From a virus, in the IMG/VR virus record IMGVR_UViG_3300049617_000275, positions 1-64,000 of that record: a stretch of 64,000 nucleotides of DNA. The stretch is one strand, 5' to 3'. A model generated the notes under the pieces. The model was not told the origin of the DNA and did no database searches. It saw only the letters and a program-made list of their open reading frames with translations. Made by a program: the position numbers and the translations under genes. Below, piece by piece: positions 9,565 through 64,000 of the stretch (positions within the stretch are counted from its first letter, which is position 1; the number at the start of each line of letters is the position of its first letter).

Positions 9565-10194
9565 ATGTTTGAGAGGTTTGATGCTCAGGCTATAAAAGTT
9601 GTAATGCTTTCTCAAGAAGAGGCGAGGAGACTTGGACATAATTTTGTAGGTACAGAGCAGATCCTTCTAGGAATTATAGGAGAAGGAGGAGCACCGGCAA
9701 AGCTTTTGCGGAGCTTAGGCGTCCGTCTTTTGGATGCACGCACAGAAATAGAAAAGATCGTAGGTCGAGGCAGTGGGTTTGTTGCAAGAGAGATTCCTTT
9801 TACGCCCAGAGCCAAGCGTGTTCTTAGTAATGCTTGGGAAGAAGCAAGGAAAATAGGACACAATTACATATCCCCGCCTACTATTCTTTTAGGCTTACTC
9901 CGAGAGACAGAGGGAGTTTCTGCTCGTGTTTTGGAGAACCTAGGAACAGATTTGGATGTTTTATATAAACTTACTCTAGAGCAAACTCCGGACAAGAAAA
10001 TGCCAGCCGAGCCGGTGTTTGACCCGTCCAGACTCATAGCAAGAATTCTTGATCTGGACTCAGGAATGCTGGATCTTGTAAAAGGGAATTTGAAACACAG
10101 CCTCATGCTGATCTCCAAGCCTTGTGAAGCGGATATCGAAGAAGGAGTACGGAGTTTGGTTGACTTTGTAACTCTCTTGAAGTCTATAAAGTAG
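9565..10194 (+). CDS. stand-alone ClpC/ClpA N-terminal (double Clp_N repeat) domain protein with a novel C-terminal tail of about 70 aa
   Basis: [38 protein letters not shown]....[21 protein letters not shown]...[10 protein letters not shown] is near-identical in pattern to ClpC N-domains. No AAA+ module follows. Confidence 0.85.
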
Positions 10195-10790: not shown

Positions 10791-13088
10791 TTGATATCCA
10801 GAAAAGAAGTAGAAGATCTTATATACGAGGTCTCCGGCGCCTTGTCGGTTGAAGAAAAGAGGAGCAAAGCTCTCTCTGCTCTTTCTCTGGTCTCTACTCC
10901 GGTAACTCACGATGCGGTTAAAGGTGCAGATCCGGAAGTTCTGGAAGGCATTGTTCAGGACATAATCGAGAAACTTGTATCTCTTCTCCGCGCAATCGAC
11001 GCCGGAGAAAAATCTTCCGAATCCAAATCCAAAGAAGTAGAGTTGGATGGAAACGACAACGTAGTTCTTCCCATTGACAACTCCCCGCTTGTTCCCCCTT
11101 CTCCGGGAGAGCCGAATACGCTTGTAGGAACGATTGATCCTAACGCAACTGGGATTCCAGACAATGCCCGTAAGTCTGCACCCAAAACTATGGATGCCGA
11201 TCTTATGGAACAGTTGGATCATCCTAATTTTCCTACATATTCCGATATGGATACAGAGAAGTATCCTACAGTTTACTCCGGCGATGAGTCGCAGATATCT
11301 TCTTCCGACGAAGTTGCGGGGAGTAAGGATCTGGGGAACACTCCACCGCATACTCTGGATCAGTTCTATCCTGTGAAAGTAGGAGACTTCGTATCCTGGG
11401 CTTCTCCCCTAGGAAGATCCTTCGGGCAGGTGGAAAGTATTGTTTTTGCAGGACAGGTGAACATTCCTGACTCCGGCAACAGTCTTGCAATGATTGCAAC
11501 AGAAGAAGATCCTGTCTGTCAAACTCGTATTTACAGAAACGACTCCGGGGAGGGATGGAGTAAAACCGATACTGTTACTTCCCTCAAGATGTCTGCTCTC
11601 TACAGAATCGATCCTTTGGAAGGTCCCCGTGCTCTTCCGCCGGTGTTACCTAACTCTCGGTCAAACTCATACTCCGCGCCGGAGTGCCAAAAGATCCTAA
11701 ATAGAAAAGGATTGGGACATTTCAAGGCCCTCGACAACGGAACAGTTTCTGTTGTCAAGAACTTCCAGATAGGAAAAGCAGAAGTTCAGAAAGACATAAA
11801 CTCCGTGAGCTTAGGAAGCGGCGGGAGTAGAAAATCTTCCTTTGACATAACCGGAGAGGATAGAGCACTTCTAGGATCAGATTGGATACCCGACGGAAGT
11901 ATATGCTGCGACGTTGTTGCAGCCGACTCGGACGTTGACAGAGGGAATGAACAGTTCCTTTCTCCTTCCTTAGATCAGCTCGCTCTTCTTTACAAAGGGA
12001 TGCCTTTACTTTTAGATCATGATTGGTCGGCTAGGAATATTGTAGGAAAGATTCTCTCCGGAAGAAATGACTCCGGCGAGCTTGTACTCCGGGCATTTGT
12101 TCCCAACACAGACGCTAACAAATGGGTTGTTGATGCAATCAAATCCGGAATCTTCTGTAAGGTATCCGTGGGATTTGCATCTTCTCCGGATTGTATGCTC
12201 TGCTCCGTTTGCAAGATTTCCATGTCTTCGGAGACGTGCCCTCACCAACCAGGAGAGACAACTCCTTTAGGAACTCCGGTAGTTCTCCAATACTCCGGGG
12301 TGTCAGATGTTTACGAAGTGTCCATTGTAGGAGTCCCTATGCAACGCAACGCGAGGATAAAAGGAGTTCATAGTCTCTTAGATTCCATTCTCCCGACAAC
12401 CGAAAAGAGACTGTTAGATAGAATTTCTTCCGAGACCAATACTAAAGGAACTGTTGAATTGTCTACTAAAGAAGTTACTCCGGCGGAGAAAGAAAATTTG
12501 ATGCCTCAAACGGCAGTCGATCCACAGTCTGCTGGAACCTTGGATGACCCGGTAGTTCCTGGAACTGCAAAATCTGCCGAAGACATGCCTAAAGAGAATC
12601 CCGGTGAAGAACCAGGAATGAATAAGGGTTTTGGTGCGATGCACGACAAGATGGATGCCCATTCCAAGATGATTGGGGAAGTCCATCAAGCTCACGAGAA
12701 TTTGAAAAACGATGTTGCCAAGATGTTCGGTACTTTGCAGCAAGTTCACGACACCTGCGGGGACATCGGGCGTAAATTAGAAGATGTTCACAGCAAGTGC
12801 GATGCCATGCATGGGTTGATGAAGTCTTTCTCCGGCGCTTCTGAGTCTATTCAGAAGGAACTAACTACCAACAAGGAAGAAAACGACGCAATACTTGTGA
12901 AATTTGCACAGGCGCTGGTAGAAATTCATAAGATGTTGGAAGTAGGTATGTCCGTATCTACGGAAACTATTCGTAAGCAGTTGTCTCAGGACAACCTTGC
13001 GCGGGAGAATGCTCTCCAAAAATCCACAAAATACTGGGTCCAAGAAGTATTTGGCTCAGACAACAATGACTCTGGAGGTCAACAGTAA
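10791..13088 (+). CDS. prohead protease (HK97/S78-like) fused to a scaffold-like coiled-coil C-terminus (765 aa)
   Basis: The central part carries VVAADSDVDRGNEQF...LLLDHDW..VGKI...GELVL....VDAIKSGIFCKVSVGF, which matches the prohead-protease pattern. The C-terminus is His/Lys-rich and helical. The TTG start is uncertain. It lies directly upstream of the capsid gene. Confidence 0.7.
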   Translation: MISRKEVEDLIYEVSGALSVEEKRSKALSALSLVSTPVTHDAVKGADPEVLEGIVQDIIEKLVSLLRAIDAGEKSSESKSKEVELDGNDNVVLPIDNSPLVPPSPGEPNTLVGTIDPNATGIPDNARKSAPKTMDADLMEQLDHPNFPTYSDMDTEKYPTVYSGDESQISSSDEVAGSKDLGNTPPHTLDQFYPVKVGDFVSWASPLGRSFGQVESIVFAGQVNIPDSGNSLAMIATEEDPVCQTRIYRNDSGEGWSKTDTVTSLKMSALYRIDPLEGPRALPPVLPNSRSNSYSAPECQKILNRKGLGHFKALDNGTVSVVKNFQIGKAEVQKDINSVSLGSGGSRKSSFDITGEDRALLGSDWIPDGSICCDVVAADSDVDRGNEQFLSPSLDQLALLYKGMPLLLDHDWSARNIVGKILSGRNDSGELVLRAFVPNTDANKWVVDAIKSGIFCKVSVGFASSPDCMLCSVCKISMSSETCPHQPGETTPLGTPVVLQYSGVSDVYEVSIVGVPMQRNARIKGVHSLLDSILPTTEKRLLDRISSETNTKGTVELSTKEVTPAEKENLMPQTAVDPQSAGTLDDPVVPGTAKSAEDMPKENPGEEPGMNKGFGAMHDKMDAHSKMIGEVHQAHENLKNDVAKMFGTLQQVHDTCGDIGRKLEDVHSKCDAMHGLMKSFSGASESIQKELTTNKEENDAILVKFAQALVEIHKMLEVGMSVSTETIRKQLSQDNLARENALQKSTKYWVQEVFGSDNNDSGGQQ

Positions 13089-13090
13089 GA

Positions 13091-14308
13091 ATGACAGCAA
13101 CAGCCGATATTAAAGGCGTTTGGGATGCCCTAGACGGGTTGATTGCCAAGAAGCATCAGCTTACCGGTACTGCTCCGGCCCCAGAAATCACAGCCATTGC
13201 CAACAAGAGAATGGAGCAGAATAAGCTGAACCTGGAAAAGGCTTTGCTCATGGATGTTCCAGATCCCCGCGACCGTTCGGTTAACACCGCTCAGTCCAAA
13301 GAATATGTAATGGGAGTCATTACCAAGGATCTGAAATCCACGGATCTAAACAGCTTGCGTCTTGTATCTCTCGCTGACAAGATGGGAGAGCTGCGTAACG
13401 GTCAGACAGTATTCCTTAACGTAGTAGAAGCTAACTCCGTCCAACGCGTCACCGACTTCCAAGTCCGTTTACGGGAACGTAGACTCGGTCAACAGACTGC
13501 TCAATGGCTGTCTCTCAACCAAGATCAGTTTGCTCCAGAAGCTCAGTCCAACTATCCGCAAAGAAGCAATACTTTAGGATTCTTGGGTAACCAGCTCAAC
13601 ATCCGTTTGATCGGTCAAGAACTTGCAGCTCAGTCTCCTGTTCAACCGGTAGACATTGTTCAGCAGGAGATCGAGTTCGAAGTAACCCGTATTCGCAGAG
13701 CGATGTCGAAATACCTGCTCTTCAACTACGAAGTTGTTAACGAAGCTTCCATTACTCCCCCGCAGCCAGGCGGATTCATAAATAGATCCAACCTGTACAA
13801 CTTTAATCTATCTGTTCCTTCGGATTTCACAAACGCAATTATCCAGCAATCTGTGGATGCGATTGCAAATGCTGCAAACCCAGAAGGTGTGTCCTACAAC
13901 GTTCCGTTGGTTTGCTTGTGCCCTTCAAGTCAGATCTCCAAGATCCGTGATTTGATGATTGCAAGATATCCTGGAACCAACGCGGAGACGTTCTTGAACG
14001 AGCAGAGTGAGCTTCGTGCCCGCTTCGCTCAAGTAGGAATTGCGCCAAATCAGATGAAGGCTTATCAGCCCGATCCCGGTATGAGCGTTCTGTTTATATT
14101 TGATCCGTTGCTCCCTGGCAACACCGCGATCTTCTTCGATCCTACCCAACCTCAACTAGGTAAGTTCCAGATCAACGGTCAGTATGGTCCTTGGGCAATC
14201 GAACGTCCAACTCCGGCTCTGACTACCCTCCTGTATGTTTTCGACGGATTCACCCTCCTGGATAACCTCCGGGAAACTCGGTCGGTTGTAACTAACCTCA
14301 ATAACTAA
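13091..14308 (+). CDS. major capsid protein candidate (405 aa)
   Basis: It starts 3 nt after the protease-scaffold stop. The size is typical, and a strong terminator follows immediately. Confidence 0.7.
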   Translation: MTATADIKGVWDALDGLIAKKHQLTGTAPAPEITAIANKRMEQNKLNLEKALLMDVPDPRDRSVNTAQSKEYVMGVITKDLKSTDLNSLRLVSLADKMGELRNGQTVFLNVVEANSVQRVTDFQVRLRERRLGQQTAQWLSLNQDQFAPEAQSNYPQRSNTLGFLGNQLNIRLIGQELAAQSPVQPVDIVQQEIEFEVTRIRRAMSKYLLFNYEVVNEASITPPQPGGFINRSNLYNFNLSVPSDFTNAIIQQSVDAIANAANPEGVSYNVPLVCLCPSSQISKIRDLMIARYPGTNAETFLNEQSELRARFAQVGIAPNQMKAYQPDPGMSVLFIFDPLLPGNTAIFFDPTQPQLGKFQINGQYGPWAIERPTPALTTLLYVFDGFTLLDNLRETRSVVTNLNN

Positions 14309-16592: not shown

Positions 16593-16665
16593 GCCGGAGA
16601 AGCAGAATAGGATATGCACTCCACTTGTAATGGAGAGATTGTGAGTTCGAAGCTCACCTCTGGCT
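16593..16665 (+). tRNA. tRNA-Thr (anticodon UGU)
   Basis: Hand-folded cloverleaf. Acceptor GCCGGAG/CTCTGGC, D arm GCAG-AATAGGAT-ATGC, anticodon arm CTCCA-CTTGTAA-TGGAG, 5-nt variable loop, T arm GTGAG-TTCGAAG-CTCAC. Position 8 is A. CCA is not encoded. Confidence 0.8.
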
Positions 16666-16705: not shown

Positions 16706-17515
16706 ATGTTCCTTTTCAATATCCTCAAGAAGAAAGAACCTCTTCACAAGTACACCTGTAGGATAGAGAACAGACCTATTCGTACTTCCTGTACTTTGAG
16801 TCTCCCCGCGGAGGGAGTAGATACGGAAGCCCCGGTGAAGTCCAGTGTTCAATCATCTTGTGCGATTATGGACAATCAGCAGTCAGAAGGGGACTGTACG
16901 GCTGAGGCTTGGAAGAATGGATATTGGCAAGCTCTAGTTGCACAGGGTTTGCCAGGTAAACTCATCTCTCGTCAGTATTTGTATTACTACGAACGTCTCC
17001 ATATGGGCCCGGAGTATGTGTTTCAGGACTCCGGCGCCGCTTTATCCGATGGGGCTTATGTGCTTACCTCCCGCGGAGTTTGTGTAGAGAGTTTATGGCC
17101 ATATTGGCAGCAATTAAATATGTCGATTACTCCTCCTTTTTGGTGTGATTTCAATGCGGTCAAAAACAAAGTCACAAAAGCGGAACAAGTCCCTCAAACT
17201 CTTGCCGCGATCAAGCATGTCATCGGAGTCAATGGAAGAACTGTCCAATGCGGAATTAACGTATTTAGCTCTCTTGAATCCGCTGCAACCCTTGCGTCTG
17301 GAAATGTTCCAATGCCCGCTGCCTCAGAGACATTACTGGGGGGACACGCTATCTCCCTTGTGGGGTATGATGACTCCGTGGAACAGATCCTCTGGAAAAA
17401 TAGCTGGGGGACCGGAATTGGCGTAAACGGAACAGGATATTTCACCCTTCCTTACGAATATATTTTGGATTCTAAACTTGCTTCGGACTTTTGGGCGATA
17501 GATCAAGCTCAGTAA
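16706..17515 (+). CDS. papain-family (C1) cysteine peptidase
   Basis: QQSEGDCTAEAW supplies the catalytic Cys context. GGHAISLVGYDD and WKNSWGTGIGVNGTGYF supply the His and Asn-Ser-Trp-Gly motifs. The start may be internal. Confidence 0.8.
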   Translation: MFLFNILKKKEPLHKYTCRIENRPIRTSCTLSLPAEGVDTEAPVKSSVQSSCAIMDNQQSEGDCTAEAWKNGYWQALVAQGLPGKLISRQYLYYYERLHMGPEYVFQDSGAALSDGAYVLTSRGVCVESLWPYWQQLNMSITPPFWCDFNAVKNKVTKAEQVPQTLAAIKHVIGVNGRTVQCGINVFSSLESAATLASGNVPMPAASETLLGGHAISLVGYDDSVEQILWKNSWGTGIGVNGTGYFTLPYEYILDSKLASDFWAIDQAQ

Positions 17516-21322: not shown

Positions 21323-21673
21323 TATAGAGTCTGAAACGAACGAGGTGGGACTCACTAACTGACACCCCCAGCAGGAATCTAGGTTAGTGCTTTTTAAGTC
21401 TGACTCCCGAAGACTATAAAAATAGGGAATACCGCCCGATGGTGCAACAGCTACCAATACACCTGAGGATTTAATTCCTCTTATAAGGCGCGATAGTTGA
21501 CTCCGATAAACTTTAAACTCTCGGAGCCTTTTGCAAACAGGTTGATTGATCCTTATTCCTGTTCGCCCAGTCGGAAAAATAGAAAGGATCTACTTTAAGG
21601 GTAGGTTAGTCCTATGTTCCCTGAATCGATCTTGCAGCGCAACAAGGGGATTTGAATACAAAGGGCCGTGTTC

Positions 21674-21744
21674 TTGAAAAGAGCTGGTAGGACACAGCAC
21701 CTGCGTTCAGCAGGGAGATAGGGGTTCGAGTCCCCTTTTTCGAG
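21674..21744 (+). ncRNA. tRNA-like element 1 (non-canonical anticodon arm)
   Basis: Acceptor TTGAAAA/TTTTCGA, extendable to 11 bp. D arm GCTG-GTAGGACA-CAGC, T arm AGGGG-TTCGAGT-CCCCT. The anticodon arm is only 15 nt (CCTGC-GTTCA-GCAGG). Confidence 0.35.
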
Positions 21745-21753
21745 AACTACATC

Positions 21754-22065: not shown

Positions 22066-22137
22066 GCGGATGTGGTATATACGTCTGTGCCGCAGTGCTC
22101 CACACTGTAGAATCGAGTTCGAATCTCGACCTCCGCT
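22066..22137 (+). tRNA. tRNA-Gly(UCC)-like, with C33 and one acceptor mismatch
   Basis: Acceptor GCGGATG/CCTCCGC with a T6-C67 mismatch. The D stem is weak (G-C, U-G, A-U, U-G). Anticodon arm GCAGT-GCTCCAC-ACTGT, T arm TCGAG-TTCGAAT-CTCGA. Confidence 0.45.
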
Positions 22138-32278: not shown

Positions 32279-32296
32279 CGCTATTTCATTACACTA

Positions 32297-32368
32297 TCCG
32301 AGTAAAGAATGTCGAAATCTTGGCCCCTTGCTCCCAAAGCAAGTGCTCTTCCTCTGAGCTACACCCGG
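32297..32368 (-). tRNA. tRNA-Pro (anticodon UGG)-like, antisense to the flanking genes, weak T stem
   Basis: Reverse strand fold. Acceptor CCGGGTG/TACTCGG, TA-GCTC-AGAGGAA-GAGC D arm, anticodon arm CTTGC-TTTGGGA-GCAAG, T arm AAGAT-TTCGACA-TTCTT with a 53-61 U-U mismatch. Confidence 0.55.
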
Positions 32369-32450
32369 ACCCATATTTTATCTCTAAAGTTCGCCGGTGT
32401 CAAGGATAGAATAGGGTCGAACAGTAGGAAAAGGAAGAGAGATAGATAAA

Positions 32451-41601: not shown

Positions 41602-41997
41602 TTGAGTTTTAACATACAGGAATTTTTGGGGGATCGGATCAAGTCTCTCTCCTCCCCGGAGCCTATCAAAGAAGATAAGCTGATCAAAAACAGTCTCTAC
41701 AAAGATGGGGTTACTTTATACGACAAGTTCTTGAAAAAGAAAGCTATAACAGACCCTCCGGGAAGGACATATGAGGAATGGAGAAAGCTGCGCTTTGAAG
41801 GCAAAGAAAATTGGCCGGTAGGCCAGTCCCATTCCATGATCCGAGAGAGACTGGGAATAGAGCCTAAACGCAAGGAACATAAAGTCCCTCACCAAAACCC
41901 CCACACCCATACTCCCGTTGTAGACTTCGGAATAGGAAAAGGTAAACACCCGGCGGGGTTGATCAAACCCTCCAAAAAGGAGAAAGATGTTACTTAA
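41602..41997 (+). CDS. hypothetical basic protein (131 aa)
   Basis: TTG start with a GGAGGAGGA Shine-Dalgarno. Confidence 0.5.
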   Translation: MSFNIQEFLGDRIKSLSSPEPIKEDKLIKNSLYKDGVTLYDKFLKKKAITDPPGRTYEEWRKLRFEGKENWPVGQSHSMIRERLGIEPKRKEHKVPHQNPHTHTPVVDFGIGKGKHPAGLIKPSKKEKDVT

Positions 41998-42511
41998 GGA
42001 CGTTGCAGAACAGTTACAGAAAGGACAGACTGTAAGATTCCGTCCTACAGGATACAGTATGTCTCCTACAATCAACTCCGGCGACATTGTAACAGTTGCT
42101 CCGGCAGAGGAGTTCTCTGTAGGGGACGTTGTTCTCTGTAAGGTCGCCGGAGACTACAAACTGCATCTTATAAAGGACATCAAACAGGTATCCGGGAAGA
42201 CCCGATATTTGATCTCGAACGCCAAGGGCAAGGAAAACGGTTGGACCTTGACGGTGTACGGAAAGAGGGTAAGTAATTCCTTCGACAAACAGACCCTTGC
42301 AACGGCCAGAGCAAGCTTCATAAAGGAGTTCTGGGACAATGATTCCAAGATCACAAACGTAATCTCCCGCGATGAGGGTCTAGAAGTCCATTTCCTCCAC
42401 GCTCAAGGTATGGAAAAGTTTCTTCCTCGCAGTCATGCCGGAGTCCCTCTTTTCAAGAGTGTAACTCCTATGCCTAAGATCAGGGATACCGCGAGGATAA
42501 GCCAGTGGTAG
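41987..42511 (+). CDS. S24/S26-type serine peptidase domain protein (LexA/UmuD/signal-peptidase fold) without a DNA-binding domain
   Basis: TGYSMSPTINSGDIVTV....GDVVLCKV...KLHLIKDI matches the G.SM.PT...GD.V Ser-Lys dyad pattern. Confidence 0.55.
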   Translation: MLLKDVAEQLQKGQTVRFRPTGYSMSPTINSGDIVTVAPAEEFSVGDVVLCKVAGDYKLHLIKDIKQVSGKTRYLISNAKGKENGWTLTVYGKRVSNSFDKQTLATARASFIKEFWDNDSKITNVISRDEGLEVHFLHAQGMEKFLPRSHAGVPLFKSVTPMPKIRDTARISQW

Positions 42512-57414: not shown

Positions 57415-57729
57415 TTATTTCTTCTGTACCACCTGTTCTGTACGGTAATGGGAGTAACGGAGTTCTATACGGAAAGGTTTCTCCGCCGATGCGTATCGCG
57501 TTGTTTCCCGGACATCTTCTGCATAGGAAGAGAGGAAATCTCCGTCTTTGTGCAGGTAGGAATTCACAATGTCGAAGGTGTCCTCGGAATACTCCGGGTC
57601 GTCTTCTGGCAGAGCATATCCTACAAGCCTCAGATTGTCCAGTGCAATTACATACTTCTTGAGCACCGGCGGTCTCTTCTTTTCTGTGTCCTCCGGAGAA
57701 GAGGAGAAAGTAATGTTGTCTTCTGTCAA
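57415..57729 (-). CDS. hypothetical protein (104 aa)
   Basis: It overlaps the previous gene by 4 nt. Confidence 0.5.
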   Translation of the reverse strand: MTEDNITFSSSPEDTEKKRPPVLKKYVIALDNLRLVGYALPEDDPEYSEDTFDIVNSYLHKDGDFLSSYAEDVRETTRYASAEKPFRIELRYSHYRTEQVVQKK

Positions 57730-58250
57730 TTTAATACTCCTAGCAATTCAAGTACTTTATCCACTACTGTGTCTCCGGCCGGAACCTTTTCGAACGGGAG
57801 CTCGAGATCCTCTAATAATTCCCAAATTCTGTAATCTAACTTCCTGGCTTCTCCCTCGGTTTGGTTTCTCCCTATGGGATCGTACTCGTAATCGTTATTT
57901 CGCCTAATAAATATATTTATAGCGTCGTAAGAATTCCACATTTCCATAACCAAAGGCTTAAAAGACGAAAAATATTCTGGTTGAGAATATATAAGCCCAA
58001 AGGGAAGAGCGGTATCTGTTACAAGGTATTCGACTCCGTGTCCTTCATGCCTACAGTAAATCCGATTCTGTTTTGCAAGGATATAGACCTGATCTGCAAG
58101 AGCCTCAAATCTTTTATCGAAAGTTAGTTGTTTGGCATACTCCGGACAATATTCCGTTCGCTTTCCCAGTTTTTTGAGAGTTGCCGCAAGATCCAATGCA
58201 GCAGTAGACTTACCTACTCCCGGCCCCCCCCAAAAAGATATTATCTTCAA
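57726..58250 (-). CDS. P-loop NTPase/kinase-like protein (174 aa)
   Basis: TTG start with a GGAAGAGGAGAG Shine-Dalgarno. The Walker A GGPGVGKST lies at residues 8-16. The EYAK...LVTDT layout resembles small nucleotide/nucleoside kinases. Confidence 0.6.
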   Translation of the reverse strand: MKIISFWGGPGVGKSTAALDLAATLKKLGKRTEYCPEYAKQLTFDKRFEALADQVYILAKQNRIYCRHEGHGVEYLVTDTALPFGLIYSQPEYFSSFKPLVMEMWNSYDAINIFIRRNNDYEYDPIGRNQTEGEARKLDYRIWELLEDLELPFEKVPAGDTVVDKVLELLGVLN

Positions 58251-58916: not shown

Positions 58917-59202
58917 TTAATTCTCCTTGGTTCTTTCGGGCTGAGTACTTATGTGGTAACCTACACAGAAACTACATTTGTATATACGGGCTCCGGGGCG
59001 GAGGTATCCTTTCTTTCTCCCCCGCTCGATCTCTTCTGCGGCATTCTTTTCAAACCGGAAGAACTTCTTCGAAGTACAGGATTTGTACTCCCAATGCCCT
59101 TCTTCCGGAAGAAACTTCTCAATAAGGAAAGAAACTCCTTTGTCCAGAGGTTTGGCGGAGTGAGGGATCTTTCCGTAAATACTACTACTTCCTTTTTGCA
59201 TT
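58917..59202 (-). CDS. small basic protein (94 aa) with a C..C..H motif
   Basis: The internal ATG (MQKGSSS) overlaps the end of the glycosyltransferase gene. YKCSFCVGYH is present. Confidence 0.45.
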
Positions 59203-60159
59203 TTTCCTCTCCTTTCGGGAAACTTTTGGTCTGCGTCTGGGTTTATGTACAAAGAAATCCTGTATCTTCTCTGGCGTCCAACTTGCAAAGTCTCTTAGAG
59301 GAATGCACAGTTCTTTGTCCAAGAAGTCGTGGTCTACATACAGAGACTCCGGCTGACCGTTCCAAATCTTCAAAAACTCTTGATCGTGCATCTTTGTGTT
59401 CTCTCCGAACACCCTATCTAGATTCAACTCCCCGCCGGGGTAGGATTGATAGTTGATCTCCGAGTCTTTTATATATTCCAGACTCTTCTTCAAAGTTGGG
59501 AAGTGCTTGGGATCATACCCTTGAACTCTCAAAGCCCGCCGGGAGAGATCCGAATGCTCCCCTCCGTAGAAGTAGGGAAACTTCTTCATATATCCGATTT
59601 TTTGGAGCAGTTTACGGGAGAACCACATCATCTGCCCTATGCAGCCGGGATGCCAACGCAAATCTTTGCTCTCAGCTTGAAAAGGGAAAGAGATTTGAAG
59701 TCCTTCTCCTATGTATCCTAGGATATGCTCCTGTTCCTCTCTCCGGCCGACATCCGCGAGATACGAAAGTAACCCTCTCTTTATGAACTCTACATCGTTA
59801 TCCATGAGAAGCAGGAAGTCAGCATCCGATTTCTTTAGGAAGTAGGATATTACTCTATTCTTGTTTGCCCAAATCCCGTTTGTATTTCCTGTAAGATAGG
59901 CTCCAGAGACAATATTTGTCTTTACCGTATCCCAAGCATCTCCCGGGGAGTCATCAGCTATTACCACATCCCAATCATGGCCTAATTCTGGACCTAAACA
60001 AACTCCCCCTTCTCCTAAGTTCAGACAGGAACGAAGAAAGCGCAGGAGAACATCGTTTTTCTTGTAGGTGGTAACTCCTATGAGAGTTTTAGGAACTTCA
60101 TTTGACACCGGCGGTCCCTCGTAGTTCCTGGCTTTGCAGATAAATCTTCTCCATCTCAT
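59185..60159 (-). CDS. family-2 (GT-A fold) glycosyltransferase (start uncertain; GTG 60108 is the alternative)
   Basis: LIGVTTYKKND...VVIADDSPGD, LLLMDNDVEF (DxD) and GGEHSDLSRRA are present. Confidence 0.7.
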   Translation of the reverse strand: MRWRRFICKARNYEGPPVSNEVPKTLIGVTTYKKNDVLLRFLRSCLNLGEGGVCLGPELGHDWDVVIADDSPGDAWDTVKTNIVSGAYLTGNTNGIWANKNRVISYFLKKSDADFLLLMDNDVEFIKRGLLSYLADVGRREEQEHILGYIGEGLQISFPFQAESKDLRWHPGCIGQMMWFSRKLLQKIGYMKKFPYFYGGEHSDLSRRALRVQGYDPKHFPTLKKSLEYIKDSEINYQSYPGGELNLDRVFGENTKMHDQEFLKIWNGQPESLYVDHDFLDKELCIPLRDFASWTPEKIQDFFVHKPRRRPKVSRKERKNAKRK

Positions 60160-60663: not shown

Positions 60664-61242
60664 TTAGGCAATGTGCATCTCCTTGTTCCATGTGTAACGC
60701 CTGCCAGAAAGAATTCCTACAAACTCCTCCGGGCGGCTTCCGGAGGGAAGGTTCCACTTTACTCCAAACTTGACTACGTCCTGAGGGTTGCGTAAGTTCT
60801 CTATCTCTGCTGCAATAAGTTCATTCAGTGTAGCATAGTTTTGGGGAGAAAACACAGCATTTATACTTTCTTCATAAATTGTTTTGCGAAGCAGGAAATC
60901 GGGAAGAAACATATTTTCCCGAAAGACATTATCCATTTTTCCTATTCTCCGCAGATCTCCTATCTTTACAGTAAGGGAGACCCCGGCGCCCTCTATGCGA
61001 ACAAGCTCGTTTTCCGCGATCCACTGCGAAATCCGTAGAGTATCTACAAGAAAGTTAAGAGCATCTGCCGGGCGGAGCCGCCGGAGAGAAGGAAAGATAT
61101 GCTGTCCTCCGGTCTTAGGAAGAGCACAGGGAACAAGTACCTCTTCCTCTAGGTCCCGTAAGGGGTTTGCAAGGGAAAGAACTGTATCTCCGTGTTCTGC
61201 CGGGCAGATGTTATCGTTCTCTTCTGTTCGTAGAATGTACAT
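60664..61242 (-). CDS. hypothetical protein (192 aa)
   Basis: Long ORF in the minus array. Confidence 0.55.
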   Translation of the reverse strand: MYILRTEENDNICPAEHGDTVLSLANPLRDLEEEVLVPCALPKTGGQHIFPSLRRLRPADALNFLVDTLRISQWIAENELVRIEGAGVSLTVKIGDLRRIGKMDNVFRENMFLPDFLLRKTIYEESINAVFSPQNYATLNELIAAEIENLRNPQDVVKFGVKWNLPSGSRPEEFVGILSGRRYTWNKEMHIA

Positions 61243-61691: not shown

Positions 61692-62243
61692 CTACTCTCC
61701 TTTCAAAACAATCGGCGGGCCGCAATCGGAGCGAAGCTTGCAGGCAGTGTCTACTGCATCGAAAGCAAGATCCCAAAGCTCCTCTTTTGTATGTGCTTTA
61801 CTGTACCCATATTCCAGAACTGCCCTACATATATCTCCTCCGCTCCCGGCTACTACGTAGCGGGAGGACTCTACACAGAATCCGTAGGGATCAGGATAGA
61901 AAAGTCCGGAGTCGGAAACAATGATAACATCGAACTCCGGCGGAGGATCTGCACACACAGAATACATCTTGTCTGCAACGATGGACTGGAAACGGTTAGC
62001 ATCCTCTACCCCCCGCATCTCCAAATACTTTGCTTTTGAGTTCAGAAGCGAGTATACACAGTGCTGGACTGCCATATTCGTTCCCGCATAAAGAGCTGTA
62101 AATCGAGGAAATATACAGTACTTCTTCGAATTTGAAAGCTCGAAGATCTCGTCGCCGGAGCAAATCCGGGAGTCACAAGCCCAAACAGTATATGCACATT
62201 CTTCCCGAGGGAGGTATTTTCTAACTGCACATATCGCTGTCAA
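61692..62243 (-). CDS. HslV/proteasome beta-subunit-like Ntn hydrolase
   Basis: TTG start gives an M-T-A-I-C-A-V N-terminus (Thr1). ACDSRI is the Asp17 equivalent and SKKYCIF the Lys33 equivalent. YAGTNMAV and VVAGSGGDICRAVLEYGY align with the HslV/20S beta motifs. Confidence 0.7.
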   Translation of the reverse strand: MTAICAVRKYLPREECAYTVWACDSRICSGDEIFELSNSKKYCIFPRFTALYAGTNMAVQHCVYSLLNSKAKYLEMRGVEDANRFQSIVADKMYSVCADPPPEFDVIIVSDSGLFYPDPYGFCVESSRYVVAGSGGDICRAVLEYGYSKAHTKEELWDLAFDAVDTACKLRSDCGPPIVLKGE

Positions 62244-62703
62244 GGCTTGTCTCCGGATGCTCTTGGAAAGAGCGGCTGCTTAACAGTGTTCCTGCCATCT
62301 CGTCTATGAGAATCTCTGTCTTCTTCTCCGGCGAGAGAAGTTCGTGGAGTTTAGATTCCAGAGCTTTAAGCCTGTTCTGTTCGTTCTGGCGGTCCAGAAC
62401 TGCGATCTTGGCCCTTAGATCTGTCAGCCAATCCTGCAAAGAGAATCCTCCTATTGTCGGACTCAATCCGAGTTCGTAAGCGGACTGTTGAAAAGCATTT
62501 ACCTCCACCGCCAAAAGAGATAGATCGTTTACCGAACAGCAGGTATGTAGATTTACCGCTCTTCCAGTTGAATCTAGATCCAGAGAGCAGTGGGTAACGG
62601 GAACAAACTTCTCGCTCCGCGCCAGTCCCTTCTTTTTCTCCTCTATCTGTTTCTTGAGTTGAAGAATGCGGGAGTCGTTGTTAGTATTTCTTTTCGTTGC
62701 CAT
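62221..62703 (-). CDS. hypothetical protein (160 aa)
   Basis: Basic N-terminus and a coiled-coil segment. Confidence 0.55.
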   Translation of the reverse strand: MATKRNTNNDSRILQLKKQIEEKKKGLARSEKFVPVTHCSLDLDSTGRAVNLHTCCSVNDLSLLAVEVNAFQQSAYELGLSPTIGGFSLQDWLTDLRAKIAVLDRQNEQNRLKALESKLHELLSPEKKTEILIDEMAGTLLSSRSFQEHPETSLDSDMCS

Positions 62704-62831
62704 TCTGTAAAAATCTCCGTTCTATTGTAAAGTTGAATTGCTCATGTAGTTCCGGAAACAATGGAAAACACTTTTTCTTTCAGCAAAAAGGGAAGGTCCG
62801 GAACAGTTCCAGCGACTCCCATCTCCTGATC

Positions 62832-63455
62832 TTAAAATCCATATCTGGGATCTGCGAAACTCCGTTTTGGGGTCAGTGGGGTAACAAGATCTTTTGCCTT
62901 CACGGACGTGCGGGAGTTGAGTATCTCCGAAAAGTCCTGTATTGAAGAGAACTCCGGCGCCCCCTCTGGGATCAGCGTCAGCTCTGTTCCTTCCCACCCA
63001 TATACAAACTTCCCTTCCAGTCCTTTTCCTTTGATAGAGTTCGTGTGCTGGAGAATGTAAAGGAGGTTAGGTAGGGTTATCTCAAACTCAAAGCCGCGAG
63101 GATCAAAGACACGGGCATAGGCTGTAGGTTGCACCGCCGCCCGAGTACAGAACTCAATGGCTTCTGCAAGGTTCAAAGAATTTACACTCCTTATAGGATA
63201 TGTGCTCATGTCCTGTCGGAAACTCCCCCAGTCGTTGGCGTAGCCTCCTACTTTTTTGTTGAGGACAAATCCTTCTGTAGGAGAGTTATCAAACTCCTGA
63301 GGCTCAATATTCCTGTCTCTCCAACTCTGCCACCCTTTCTCCTTCTTGAGAACTCCTTTAGGACCAAAATAGATCACGTAAGCAAGCTTGCCGGTGTAGG
63401 TTCCGCTTCGGTTTTGAAACCCTACTTTGAGTTTCTCGGGTATGTATACAGGCAT
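62832..63455 (-). CDS. hypothetical protein (207 aa); source of the fragment at 57051-57139
   Basis: ATG overlaps the helicase stop. No motif recognised. Confidence 0.6.
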   Translation of the reverse strand: MPVYIPEKLKVGFQNRSGTYTGKLAYVIYFGPKGVLKKEKGWQSWRDRNIEPQEFDNSPTEGFVLNKKVGGYANDWGSFRQDMSTYPIRSVNSLNLAEAIEFCTRAAVQPTAYARVFDPRGFEFEITLPNLLYILQHTNSIKGKGLEGKFVYGWEGTELTLIPEGAPEFSSIQDFSEILNSRTSVKAKDLVTPLTPKRSFADPRYGF

Positions 63456-64000
63456 TAAAACAACTCCGCAATAAGGTTTCGTAAAGGAATTTCACTTTTC
63501 TTTCCGTCTAAAATGTTAGCAGAATCCGCATACTTTTGCAAGATCTTCCGTAGGATCTGTTTTTCCCGTGTTCCTTCGGCAGTCAGGAAGAAAGTATTCG
63601 TGTCCTGGGTTTGGGTAAGACGGGAAACCCTGTCTCGGGCCTGGAATATCACATCTGCATCCGGATCAAAAGAAGAATATATGGAAGTGTTAGCTCGGGG
63701 AAGGTTTATTCCCAGCCCGCTCTTTCTGCTATGTGTTCCTGAGAAAATCAGGGCTCCGGCGGGAGCAAAGGGAAAGTCCGGATAGAGCTTCTTGAGGCGT
63801 GCAAACTCTCTTTCTTCGTCTTCATTCCGAAGACCTTGGAAAGCCCATACCGCGAGTTTCTGCATTCCTTCAGACACCGCGCCGGAGTAAACAACAGCAT
63901 GTTTAGGAAACTTCTCCTGTACAAGGCGGGTTATACGTTCGAACCTACTCCAATGCACAATGGGCTCTCCCCTCTCTATGTGTTCCTTGAAAGTTTCAAA
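63455..64000 (-). CDS. SNF2-family helicase, C-terminal part (gene continues beyond the window)
   Basis: Motif V/VI region: LIFSGTHSRKSGLGINLPRANTSIYSSFDPDADVIFQARDRVSRLTQ. The frame is open to the window edge. Confidence 0.8.
   Translation of the reverse strand, partial: FETFKEHIERGEPIVHWSRFERITRLVQEKFPKHAVVYSGAVSEGMQKLAVWAFQGLRNEDEEREFARLKKLYPDFPFAPAGALIFSGTHSRKSGLGINLPRANTSIYSSFDPDADVIFQARDRVSRLTQTQDTNTFFLTAEGTREKQILRKILQKYADSANILDGKKSEIPLRNLIAELF

Follow-up and report, generated by a model that had tools for sequence, protein, structure and literature searches.

A proteasome-like gene of the BPH/HslV type, probably encoding an ATP-independent Thr1 peptidase, in the early block of an uncultured phage lineage

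Results

A proteasome-like gene whose start codon adjoins the nucleophile codon

The window, by which we mean the whole 64,000-nt stretch analysed here (positions 1 to 64,000 of IMG/VR virus record IMGVR_UViG_3300049617_000275), carries on its minus strand, at 61692..62243 with the stop codon included, a gene for a 183-aa proteasome-like N-terminal nucleophile (Ntn) hydrolase of group I (BPH/HslV-type). It was recognised from its open reading frame (ORF), from Pfam and PHROG matches, from an AlphaFold2 (AF2) model and from Foldseek and hhalign comparisons. A preliminary description, made from the letters of the sequence, had given the product as 183 residues starting M-T-A-I-C-A-V. Our analysis confirmed this and adds that the start codon, which the description did not mention, is TTG: the gene opens TTG ACA GCG ATA TGT GCA GTT, read as (f)M-T-A-I-C-A-V. 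The TTG (62241-62243) and the ACA codon that follows it occupy 62238..62243 on the minus strand, ACA encoding the nucleophile Thr, which is residue 2 and would become Thr1 once Met is removed.

This TTG is the first ATG, GTG or TTG past an in-frame TAA at 62280-62282, and no alternative start was found between that stop and the TTG. The start therefore does not lie upstream, as the preliminary description had allowed it might, and Thr is residue 2. A Shine-Dalgarno-like GGAG motif, read from the sequence, lies 7 nt 5' of the TTG (62251..62254, minus strand), within the 3' end of the preceding gene (62221..62703), which the start of the proteasome-like gene overlaps by 23 nt. The same TTG was chosen by the gene caller on an independent Logan contig. 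The sequence is present in DNA metagenome runs only, from moss.

The start and Thr codons together spell TTGACA, a perfect sigma-70 -35 hexamer, and GAAAAT lies 16 nt downstream, giving 10/12 matches over 62216..62243 (minus strand). A promoter and terminator scan around the gene returned counts not above those for shuffled sequence, and the promoter likeness is probably a coincidence.

Comparison of the TTG-ACA pair with the corresponding codons at related loci showed the start codon directly adjoining the Thr codon in nearly all members whose reading frames we compared, even where the start codon is weak. The pair reads TTG-ACT at L004, where it lies directly 3' of the helicase TAA and is preceded by GGGAGGAG, ATG-ACC at L005, again directly 3' of a TAA, ATG-ACA at L008 and ATG-ACT at L016. 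At L012 it is likely TTG-ACA, with GGAG 8 nt before it and with the start overlapping the helicase TGA as TTGA; the called start is a GTG three codons upstream. At L009 (70-90) the pair is probably ATT-ACT, with GGAGG 8 nt before the ATT and the called start five codons upstream. GGAG or GGAGG motifs thus stand 5' of the starts at L004, L005, L009 and L012. Judged from these sequences, the called starts of the proteins P0004 (L009) and P0013 (L012:10001-10015) are probably too far upstream. At L010 (10001-10021) no start adjoins the Thr codon; the protein P0016 has an apparently genuine 6-residue prefix, MATKTT, ahead of the Thr, and it may need autoprocessing.

That Thr is held at position 2 despite weak start codons is explained if an N-terminal nucleophile requires it. 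Methionine aminopeptidase prefers small residues at position 2, and by analogy with this specificity, with HslV and with BPH, fMet would be removed before the Thr of the window protein. For BPH, the Betaproteobacteria proteasome homologue, an exposed Thr1 was seen by mass spectrometry (PMC5777263).

Fold and superfamily placement

The protein matched the Pfam family PF00227 (Proteasome) at 32.1 bits (gathering score 22.4, E 1.2e-7) and PHROG 1040, 'peptidase HslV family' (E 1.1e-6). When PDB sequences were searched with phmmer, archaeal 20S beta subunits came out best (6z46_H, E 4.7e-5), with D24 placed on position 17 and K41 on Lys33. An hhalign comparison of the family alignment with E. coli HslV (sequence taken from NC_000913.3) gave a probability of 96.8% over 160 columns and paired MT with MT, D24 with Asp17, K41 with Lys33, the glycine of YAG (G54) with that of FAGG, and GSGG with GSGG. 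All five landmarks picked out by eye in the preliminary description (MT, ACDSR, SKKY, YAGT and GSGG) were upheld by this comparison, and the Pfam and PDB alignments concur.

An AF2 monomer model built from a 24-sequence alignment had a predicted local distance difference test (pLDDT) score of 94.1 and a predicted template modelling (pTM) score of 0.90. Its elements follow the canonical order S1-S6, H1-H2, S7-S10, H3-H4, S11, a compact arrangement without insertions, S12 or H5; S11 (residues 179-182) is the last element, and nothing is added to the fold. Foldseek placed Thiobacillus BPH at the top of its PDB matches (TM 0.78-0.82); next came beta subunits of yeast, archaea and mammals, together with HslV, and all of these matches had a probability of 1.00. 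Searched against the PDB, the family profile likewise had a BPH as its best match, that of Cupriavidus (5ovu_A, Cm-BPH; 57 bits, E 1.5e-14). The earlier assignment to HslV/proteasome-like Ntn hydrolases is in agreement with Pfam, PHROG, hhalign, AF2 and Foldseek alike, and on the evidence of its sequence and predicted structure the window protein belongs, with all catalytic residues in place, to the proteasome-beta/HslV Ntn-hydrolase superfamily.

Catalytic residues and the pore loop

The family alignment comprises 24 sequences, whose members are 22-36% identical to the window protein. Three of its columns are invariant (K41, G54 and G133) and three more nearly so (T2, D24 and S25). T2, the equivalent of proteasome Thr1 (codon within 62238..62243, minus strand), is T in all 23 sequences that reach the column. 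Asp24, equivalent to Asp17 (62172..62174, minus strand), is D in 23 of 24 sequences and E in one; Lys41, equivalent to Lys33 (62121..62123, minus strand), and Gly54, equivalent to the oxyanion-hole Gly47 (62082..62084, minus strand), are K and G throughout (24/24 each). The segment Gly133-Ser134-Gly135 corresponds to G128-S129-G130 (61839..61847, minus strand), with G133 in 24/24 sequences and position 134 occupied by S in 15 and C in 6. The pattern suggests that the catalytic set is under selection across a divergent family. A family signature is Cys174, at the position of Ser169 in 20S beta alignments (61722..61724, minus strand), where 20 of the 24 members have C, two S and one T.

Between H2 and S7 the window protein has a short acidic 'pore loop', CADPPPEF, at residues 97-104 (61932..61955, minus strand), delimited by DSSP assignment on the model (helix 79-96, strand 104-110) and aligned with the acidic loop of BPH. 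This loop is net acidic in all 24 members. At about 8 residues it is some 8-10 residues shorter in the window protein than in most members, most of which are near BPH length.

A Lys/Arg-rich tail of 10-26 residues (4-9 K/R), in many cases preceded by an L-P motif, extends the C-terminus of nine of the 24 members; the carriers include P0010, P0011, P0012, P0016, P0018, P0019, P0023 and P0024. The tail of P0013 is acidic and Pro-rich instead, and the window protein has no K/R-rich tail. C-termini point outward in known proteasome-type rings, and by analogy the K/R tail could serve for docking or for binding nucleic acid.

Distribution of the family

An exhaustive phmmer search of 1.84 billion representative proteins found only 26 at E <= 1e-3 and 9 at E <= 1e-10, and the 24 of these that we aligned form one coherent family with the window protein. 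Nineteen of the 20 relatives that we looked up came from metagenome sources only (JGI, ENA and Logan), and one also had an NCBI tag. A word-indexed search of 5.8 billion proteins returned only the protein itself when the single sequence was used and five proteins with the family profile. Nothing meaningful was found in GenBank phages by megablast of the 6-kb region or by tblastn of the protein (at E 1e-3 and again at E 10), and scans of IMG/VR and of GTDB genomes with the protein or a sub-alignment yielded no relative, prophage copy or host clue. In BFVD, about 30 structurally similar models were found at E <= 1e-3 with 10-20% identity, among them proteins of Vibrio phage phi 3, Gordonia phage Daredevil, Caulobacter phage CcrBL9 and Serratia phage Moabite. 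The subfamily is therefore seen almost only in metagenomes, and this almost purely metagenomic origin probably places it outside the nr-based 2021 survey of proteasome homologues (PMC8665760).

Unfoldases, partner subunits and other proteolytic genes

A six-frame Walker-A scan of the window gave one credible P-loop ORF, which is not an unfoldase: it encodes a 174-aa AAA_28 kinase-like P-loop protein (57726..58250; Walker-A scan, Pfam). The view of the preliminary description that no HslU-like ATPase lies in the window therefore stands. Among the ORFs of 250 aa or more, all of which were scanned with Pfam, there was no AAA+ protein in the 64 kb either, and none is conserved beside the proteasome-like gene in the seven neighbourhoods of relatives. 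When the window was searched in six frames with the family profile (hmmsearch), the gene itself was the only match; there was no alpha-like or second beta-like subunit, and a single PF00227 gene is found at each related locus. Having only one proteasome-like copy, the window does not encode an alpha/beta pair, and we rejected that candidate.

The same description had credited the phage with an unusually rich proteolysis toolkit, of which the Clp_N, papain-like C1 and S24 members were borne out by Pfam. The Clp_N-only protein (209 aa; 9565..10194, plus strand; E 9e-27) has two Clp_N repeats and no ATPase domain, and its gene lies in the structural module between a portal-like gene and a gene with a weak prohead-protease match. 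The latter encodes a 765-aa protein (10791..13088, plus strand) with a sub-threshold match to S78 prohead proteases (18.6 bits, cut-off 21). A papain-family Peptidase_C1 gene is found at 16706..17515 (plus strand; E 2.6e-6; 28.1 bits, cut-off 20.7), and a 33% identical homologue occurs at L016:7417-8148, immediately 5' of SNF2 and next to the proteasome-like block. The gene for the S24-like peptidase (41987..42511, plus strand; E 3e-8) stands at the end of the structural module.

Genomic neighbourhood and phage lineage

The plus strand of the window, from 1 to 42.5 kb, holds the portal-like gene, the Clp_N-only gene, the gene with the weak prohead-protease match, genes for long Pfam-less proteins (presumably tail components) and the S24 peptidase gene. 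Small genes occupy the minus strand between about 43 kb and the end of the window. In the order of transcription the block reads SNF2, phrog_2475, phrog_2574, the proteasome-like gene, genes for proteins of 112, 192 and 95 aa, GT2, small genes and AAA_28. A prohead protease was rejected as an identity for the proteasome-like protein, as its gene stands in the early block, opposite the structural module.

The conserved upstream neighbour is a gene for an SNF2-type helicase (PHROG 62), of which the 3' part lies at 63455..64000 (minus strand) with its frame open to the window end. The window SNF2 is 38-55% identical to its counterparts at L004, L005, L010, L012 and L016. SNF2 lies upstream in all seven relatives whose neighbourhoods could be read (L004, L005, L010, L012, L014, L015 and L016), and in these the proteasome-like gene follows immediately 3' of it except at L015, where two small genes intervene; the SNF2 stop and the proteasome-like start sometimes abut or overlap. 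Genes for Cpn10 and a sigma-70-type factor are found upstream in six of the seven (all but L004), and GT2 downstream. The GT2 glycosyltransferase gene of the window (59185..60159, minus strand; Pfam, PHROG), also a member of the conserved block, encodes a protein with 26-44% identity to the GT2 proteins of the relatives, and the proteasome-like protein itself is 23-33% identical to its relatives at these loci. Set beside the GT2 and SNF2 values, this indicates that the gene is conserved in the lineage but evolves fast within the early/replication block.

Between SNF2 and the proteasome-like gene the window phage carries a two-gene cassette (62221..63455, minus strand), composed of phrog_2475 (62832..63455, 207 aa, E 3e-64) and phrog_2574 (62221..62703, 160 aa, E 8e-31), which is absent from this place in the seven relatives. 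Homologues of phrog_2475 are present in 164 GenBank phage records (139 Bacillus, 15 Prevotella, 6 Vibrio, few others), and the pair also stands side by side in Clostridioides phage LIBA2945. There, the 178-aa gene that follows the pair is not homologous to the proteasome-like protein, indicating that cassette and peptidase are not a unit.

Downstream, the 192-aa protein (60664..61242, minus strand) is a conserved neighbour: tblastn matched it to L016 10876-11187 (28.6% over 112 aa, E 1e-9), where a 197-aa homologue is encoded directly 3' of the peptidase gene. In six other relatives a conserved family that we call A2 is encoded just 3' of the proteasome-like gene (about 250 aa, 28-54% identity; L012:10686-11438, L004:10305-11054, L005:10761-11504, L010:12765-13571, L015:10564-11319 and L014:11267-11887). 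No Pfam or PDB sequence match was obtained for A2, and candidate GT-A-like motifs (NRLNFARNxNxGLR and an acidic DDD) were seen by eye only. The window 192-aa protein has only a C-terminal motif in common with A2 (hhalign probability 11.6%). Given this weak link and the lack of a Pfam or PDB match, A2 was rejected as a recognisable partner.

PADLOC gave no defence or anti-defence match for the proteasome-like gene or its neighbours. A capsid-size 405-aa protein (13091..14308, plus strand) had no tblastn match in 50,697 GenBank phage records, the region around the proteasome-like gene had no DNA match in GenBank phages, and the best tblastn matches of the window helicase there did not exceed 26% identity. 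The lack of a capsid match and the distance of the helicase indicate a lineage without a cultured relative. The window phage comes from moss metagenomes, has 46% GC and is represented by a 108-kb contig; the contigs of the relatives are about 75-172 kb long. Together they form an uncultured lineage marked by the block Cpn10 - sigma-70 - SNF2 - proteasome-like - GT2. Four tRNA genes lie in the structural module: Thr(TGT) at 16593..16665 (plus strand), Glu(TTC) at 21673..21745 (plus strand), Gly(TCC) at 22066..22137 (plus strand) and Pro(TGG) at 32296..32369 (minus strand).

Discussion

Relation to known proteasome-type proteins

Fuchs, Alva and Lupas (2021, PMC8665760) place BPH at the centre of group I, from which HslV, AAH, CPH and PPH branch off. 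They describe group I subunits as compact and free of insertions, S12 and H5, and they state that PPH, AAH and CPH occur in phages. In the traits that we examined, namely the modelled fold, the catalytic residues and the lack of S12/H5, the window protein appears to be a group I subunit. Its nearest solved relative, both by fold and by family profile, is BPH (PDB 5OVS, 5OVT and 5OVU; PMC5777263), with which it shares a compact subunit, a Thr that immediately follows the start Met, no propeptide, a single gene and no dedicated unfoldase. The single gene argues for a homo-oligomer in both cases. BPH forms a tetradecameric (7+7) double ring, and its pore loop is elongated and highly acidic (PMC5777263); the H2-S7 loop is acidic across the family of the window protein. 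The identity to BPH is, however, only about 14-16%, and the window protein differs in its short loop, in the Cys at the Ser169 position, and in being phage-borne and syntenic with SNF2.

HslV (ClpQ), the peptidase of the HslVU protease, agrees with it in fold and catalytic residues and likewise starts with MT and no propeptide; the AAA+ partner HslU is typically encoded with HslV in an hslVU operon. In contrast to HslV, the window gene has no hslU next to it or elsewhere in the window, and its product misses the NCBIfam models TIGR03692 and NF003964, which only 4-6 of the 24 family members match weakly (best E about 2e-6). The S1-S2 hairpin of the window protein is 4-6 residues longer, and its family has an acidic pore whereas the HslV pore entrance is basic, with Arg86, Arg89 and Lys90 (PMC5777263). 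Considering the lack of HslU in the window, the missed curated models and the acidic pore, we rejected an HslV equivalog. The 20S beta subunits share PF00227 and the residues Thr1, Asp17, Lys33, Gly47 and the GSG motif, and TIGR03634 is matched by 23 of the 24 family members. The window protein scores only 38.5 bits with TIGR03634 against a cut-off of 224, however, and is found without an alpha subunit, a propeptide or S12/H5; a 20S beta equivalog was rejected on the score, the lack of an alpha subunit and the lack of a propeptide.

The phage genes of the PPH, AAH and CPH families and of PHROG 1040 are likewise stand-alone group I genes without an AAA+ partner. The window protein is not a PPH, which is about 140 aa long and lacks H2 (PMC8665760), whereas the window protein has 183 aa and an H2 at residues 79-96. 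Nor is it a connectase: connectases have no H1/H2 pair and carry two additional helices inserted between S3 and S4 (PMC8665760), whereas the model has both H1 and H2 and a turn of 2 residues between S3 (27-29) and S4 (32-34). We regard the window protein as a new member, and probably a new subfamily, of a catalogued kind, the group I proteasome-like Ntn hydrolases of phages, in a comparison that covered BPH and HslV by sequence and fold and PPH by its architecture.

A propeptide-less Thr1 peptidase as the favoured interpretation

We consider it probable that the gene encodes a propeptide-less, homo-oligomeric and probably ATP-independent Thr1 peptidase of the group I (BPH/HslV) clade, and that it is a conserved gene of the early/replication block of its phages. 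In the mechanism that we propose, the protein would be translated from the TTG, after which host deformylase and methionine aminopeptidase would strip fMet, turning Thr2 into Thr1 with a free alpha-amine. The O-gamma of Thr1 would attack the scissile bond with the assistance of Lys41 and Asp24, and Gly54 would stabilise the oxyanion; these triad roles follow the unified proteasome mechanism cited in PMC8665760. The subunits would probably build a homo-oligomeric double ring that encloses the active sites and has an acidic pore loop; the analogy with all solved group I members suggests such a double ring, with an acidic lumen entrance and no dedicated unfoldase. In the early or middle phase of infection the enzyme would probably act, without a dedicated unfoldase, on peptides, on unfolded proteins or on specific host or phage proteins.

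Several observations weigh against this interpretation. The Asp166 position is variable, being R171 in the window protein and N, S or D elsewhere, the Ser169 position is a Cys, and the pore loop is much shorter than in the rest of the family and in BPH. BPH itself bound epoxomicin yet was inert on standard peptide and casein substrates (PMC5777263), so that in using the word 'peptidase' we infer an activity from the conservation of the active site. The search for AAA+ proteins covers 64 kb, and about 44 kb of the 108-kb contig lie outside it, leaving room for a phage AAA+ partner. L014, a distant relative on a 172-kb contig, has a gene for a 355-aa classical AAA protein (PF00004; 13708-14775) 3 kb downstream of its proteasome-like gene; the AAA protein has no counterpart in the window (tblastn) or at the other six loci. 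In the literature that we searched, no experimental work on phage proteasome homologues was found.

Alternative explanations

Since HslV of E. coli aligns with it end to end, down to a propeptide-less beginning at MT, and since HslV is among the fold matches, the protein could be an HslV mimic whose rings dock on a host AAA+ protein (HslU or another) or on a phage AAA+ protein encoded outside the window, redirecting ATP-dependent degradation to targets chosen by the phage. HslV-only jumbo phages have been noted (PMC7823757), and the AAA gene of L014 would fit the same scheme. Both sequence and fold are nearer to BPH and 20S beta than to HslV, however, and an acidic pore loop takes the place of the HslV residues Arg86, Arg89 and Lys90. 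The window holds no AAA+ protein, none is conserved in the seven neighbourhoods, and co-occurring AAA+ proteins were found neither for BPH (PMC5777263) nor for the newly described proteasome-like homologues (PMC8665760). Docking of this kind thus seems to us distinctly unlikely.

We also give a low probability to a specific Ntn enzyme, either a connectase-like transpeptidase or ligase or an amidase, with one defined phage or host substrate that may be tied to the neighbouring glycosyltransferases or the SNF2 helicase. The Ntn clan is chemically versatile, connectase being a ligating homologue of the proteasome (PMC8665760), BPH is without general protease activity (PMC5777263), and the tight coupling to SNF2 together with the co-conserved A2-family and GT2 genes hints at a specific role. 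On the other hand, the connectase signature is missing, with H1/H2 present and no helical insertion between S3 and S4, connectase lies outside the top 50 fold matches, and the full proteasome triad and the oxyanion glycine are retained. Finally, a TTG start, a 23-nt overlap with the preceding gene and a sequence found in DNA metagenome runs only might be expected of a catalytically dead scaffold, a decoy or an annotation artefact, with a wrongly called start, a Thr away from the N-terminus or an unexpressed ORF. This explanation is already largely refuted and we regard it as highly improbable: no other start lies between the upstream in-frame stop and the TTG, starts further downstream would remove S1 and catalytic residues, and the GGAG motif, the independent gene call, the MT starts across the family and the invariant catalytic residues all speak for a functional enzyme whose gene has been delimited correctly.

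Significance

The existence of the gene will not surprise a specialist, phage proteasome homologues having been catalogued in 2021. The preliminary description had called self-compartmentalised proteases of phages poorly characterised, which holds for experiments; they have, however, already been catalogued (PMC8665760, PMC7823757), and the novelty is correspondingly lower. What our analysis adds is the BPH-like placement, a conserved catalytic set in which Cys replaces Ser169, the constraint on the start codon and a fixed position coupled to SNF2 in the uncultured lineage. For annotation, the product changes from 'hypothetical protein' to 'proteasome-like Ntn peptidase (group I, BPH-like)', and the gene block can serve as a marker for the lineage.

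The substrates and partners of the stand-alone homologues BPH and Anbu and of the 22 families of PMC8665760 are not known. The subfamily described here is a clean case, with a conserved active site, a start pinned to the nucleophile and a fixed place behind SNF2, and a knockout or expression of the gene could show what an unfoldase-free proteasome-like enzyme does. More tentatively, and with considerable doubt on our part, the family may be an undescribed phage-restricted branch and a core gene of its lineage, translationally coupled to SNF2 and encoding a BPH-like ring protease that works without ATP and has a defined task in infection. Such a task might be the removal of a host factor or, beside the phage sigma factor, control over when the early-to-middle switch takes place. 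If so, a phage system of this kind with a clear infection phenotype could yield the first physiological substrate for any unfoldase-less proteasome homologue.

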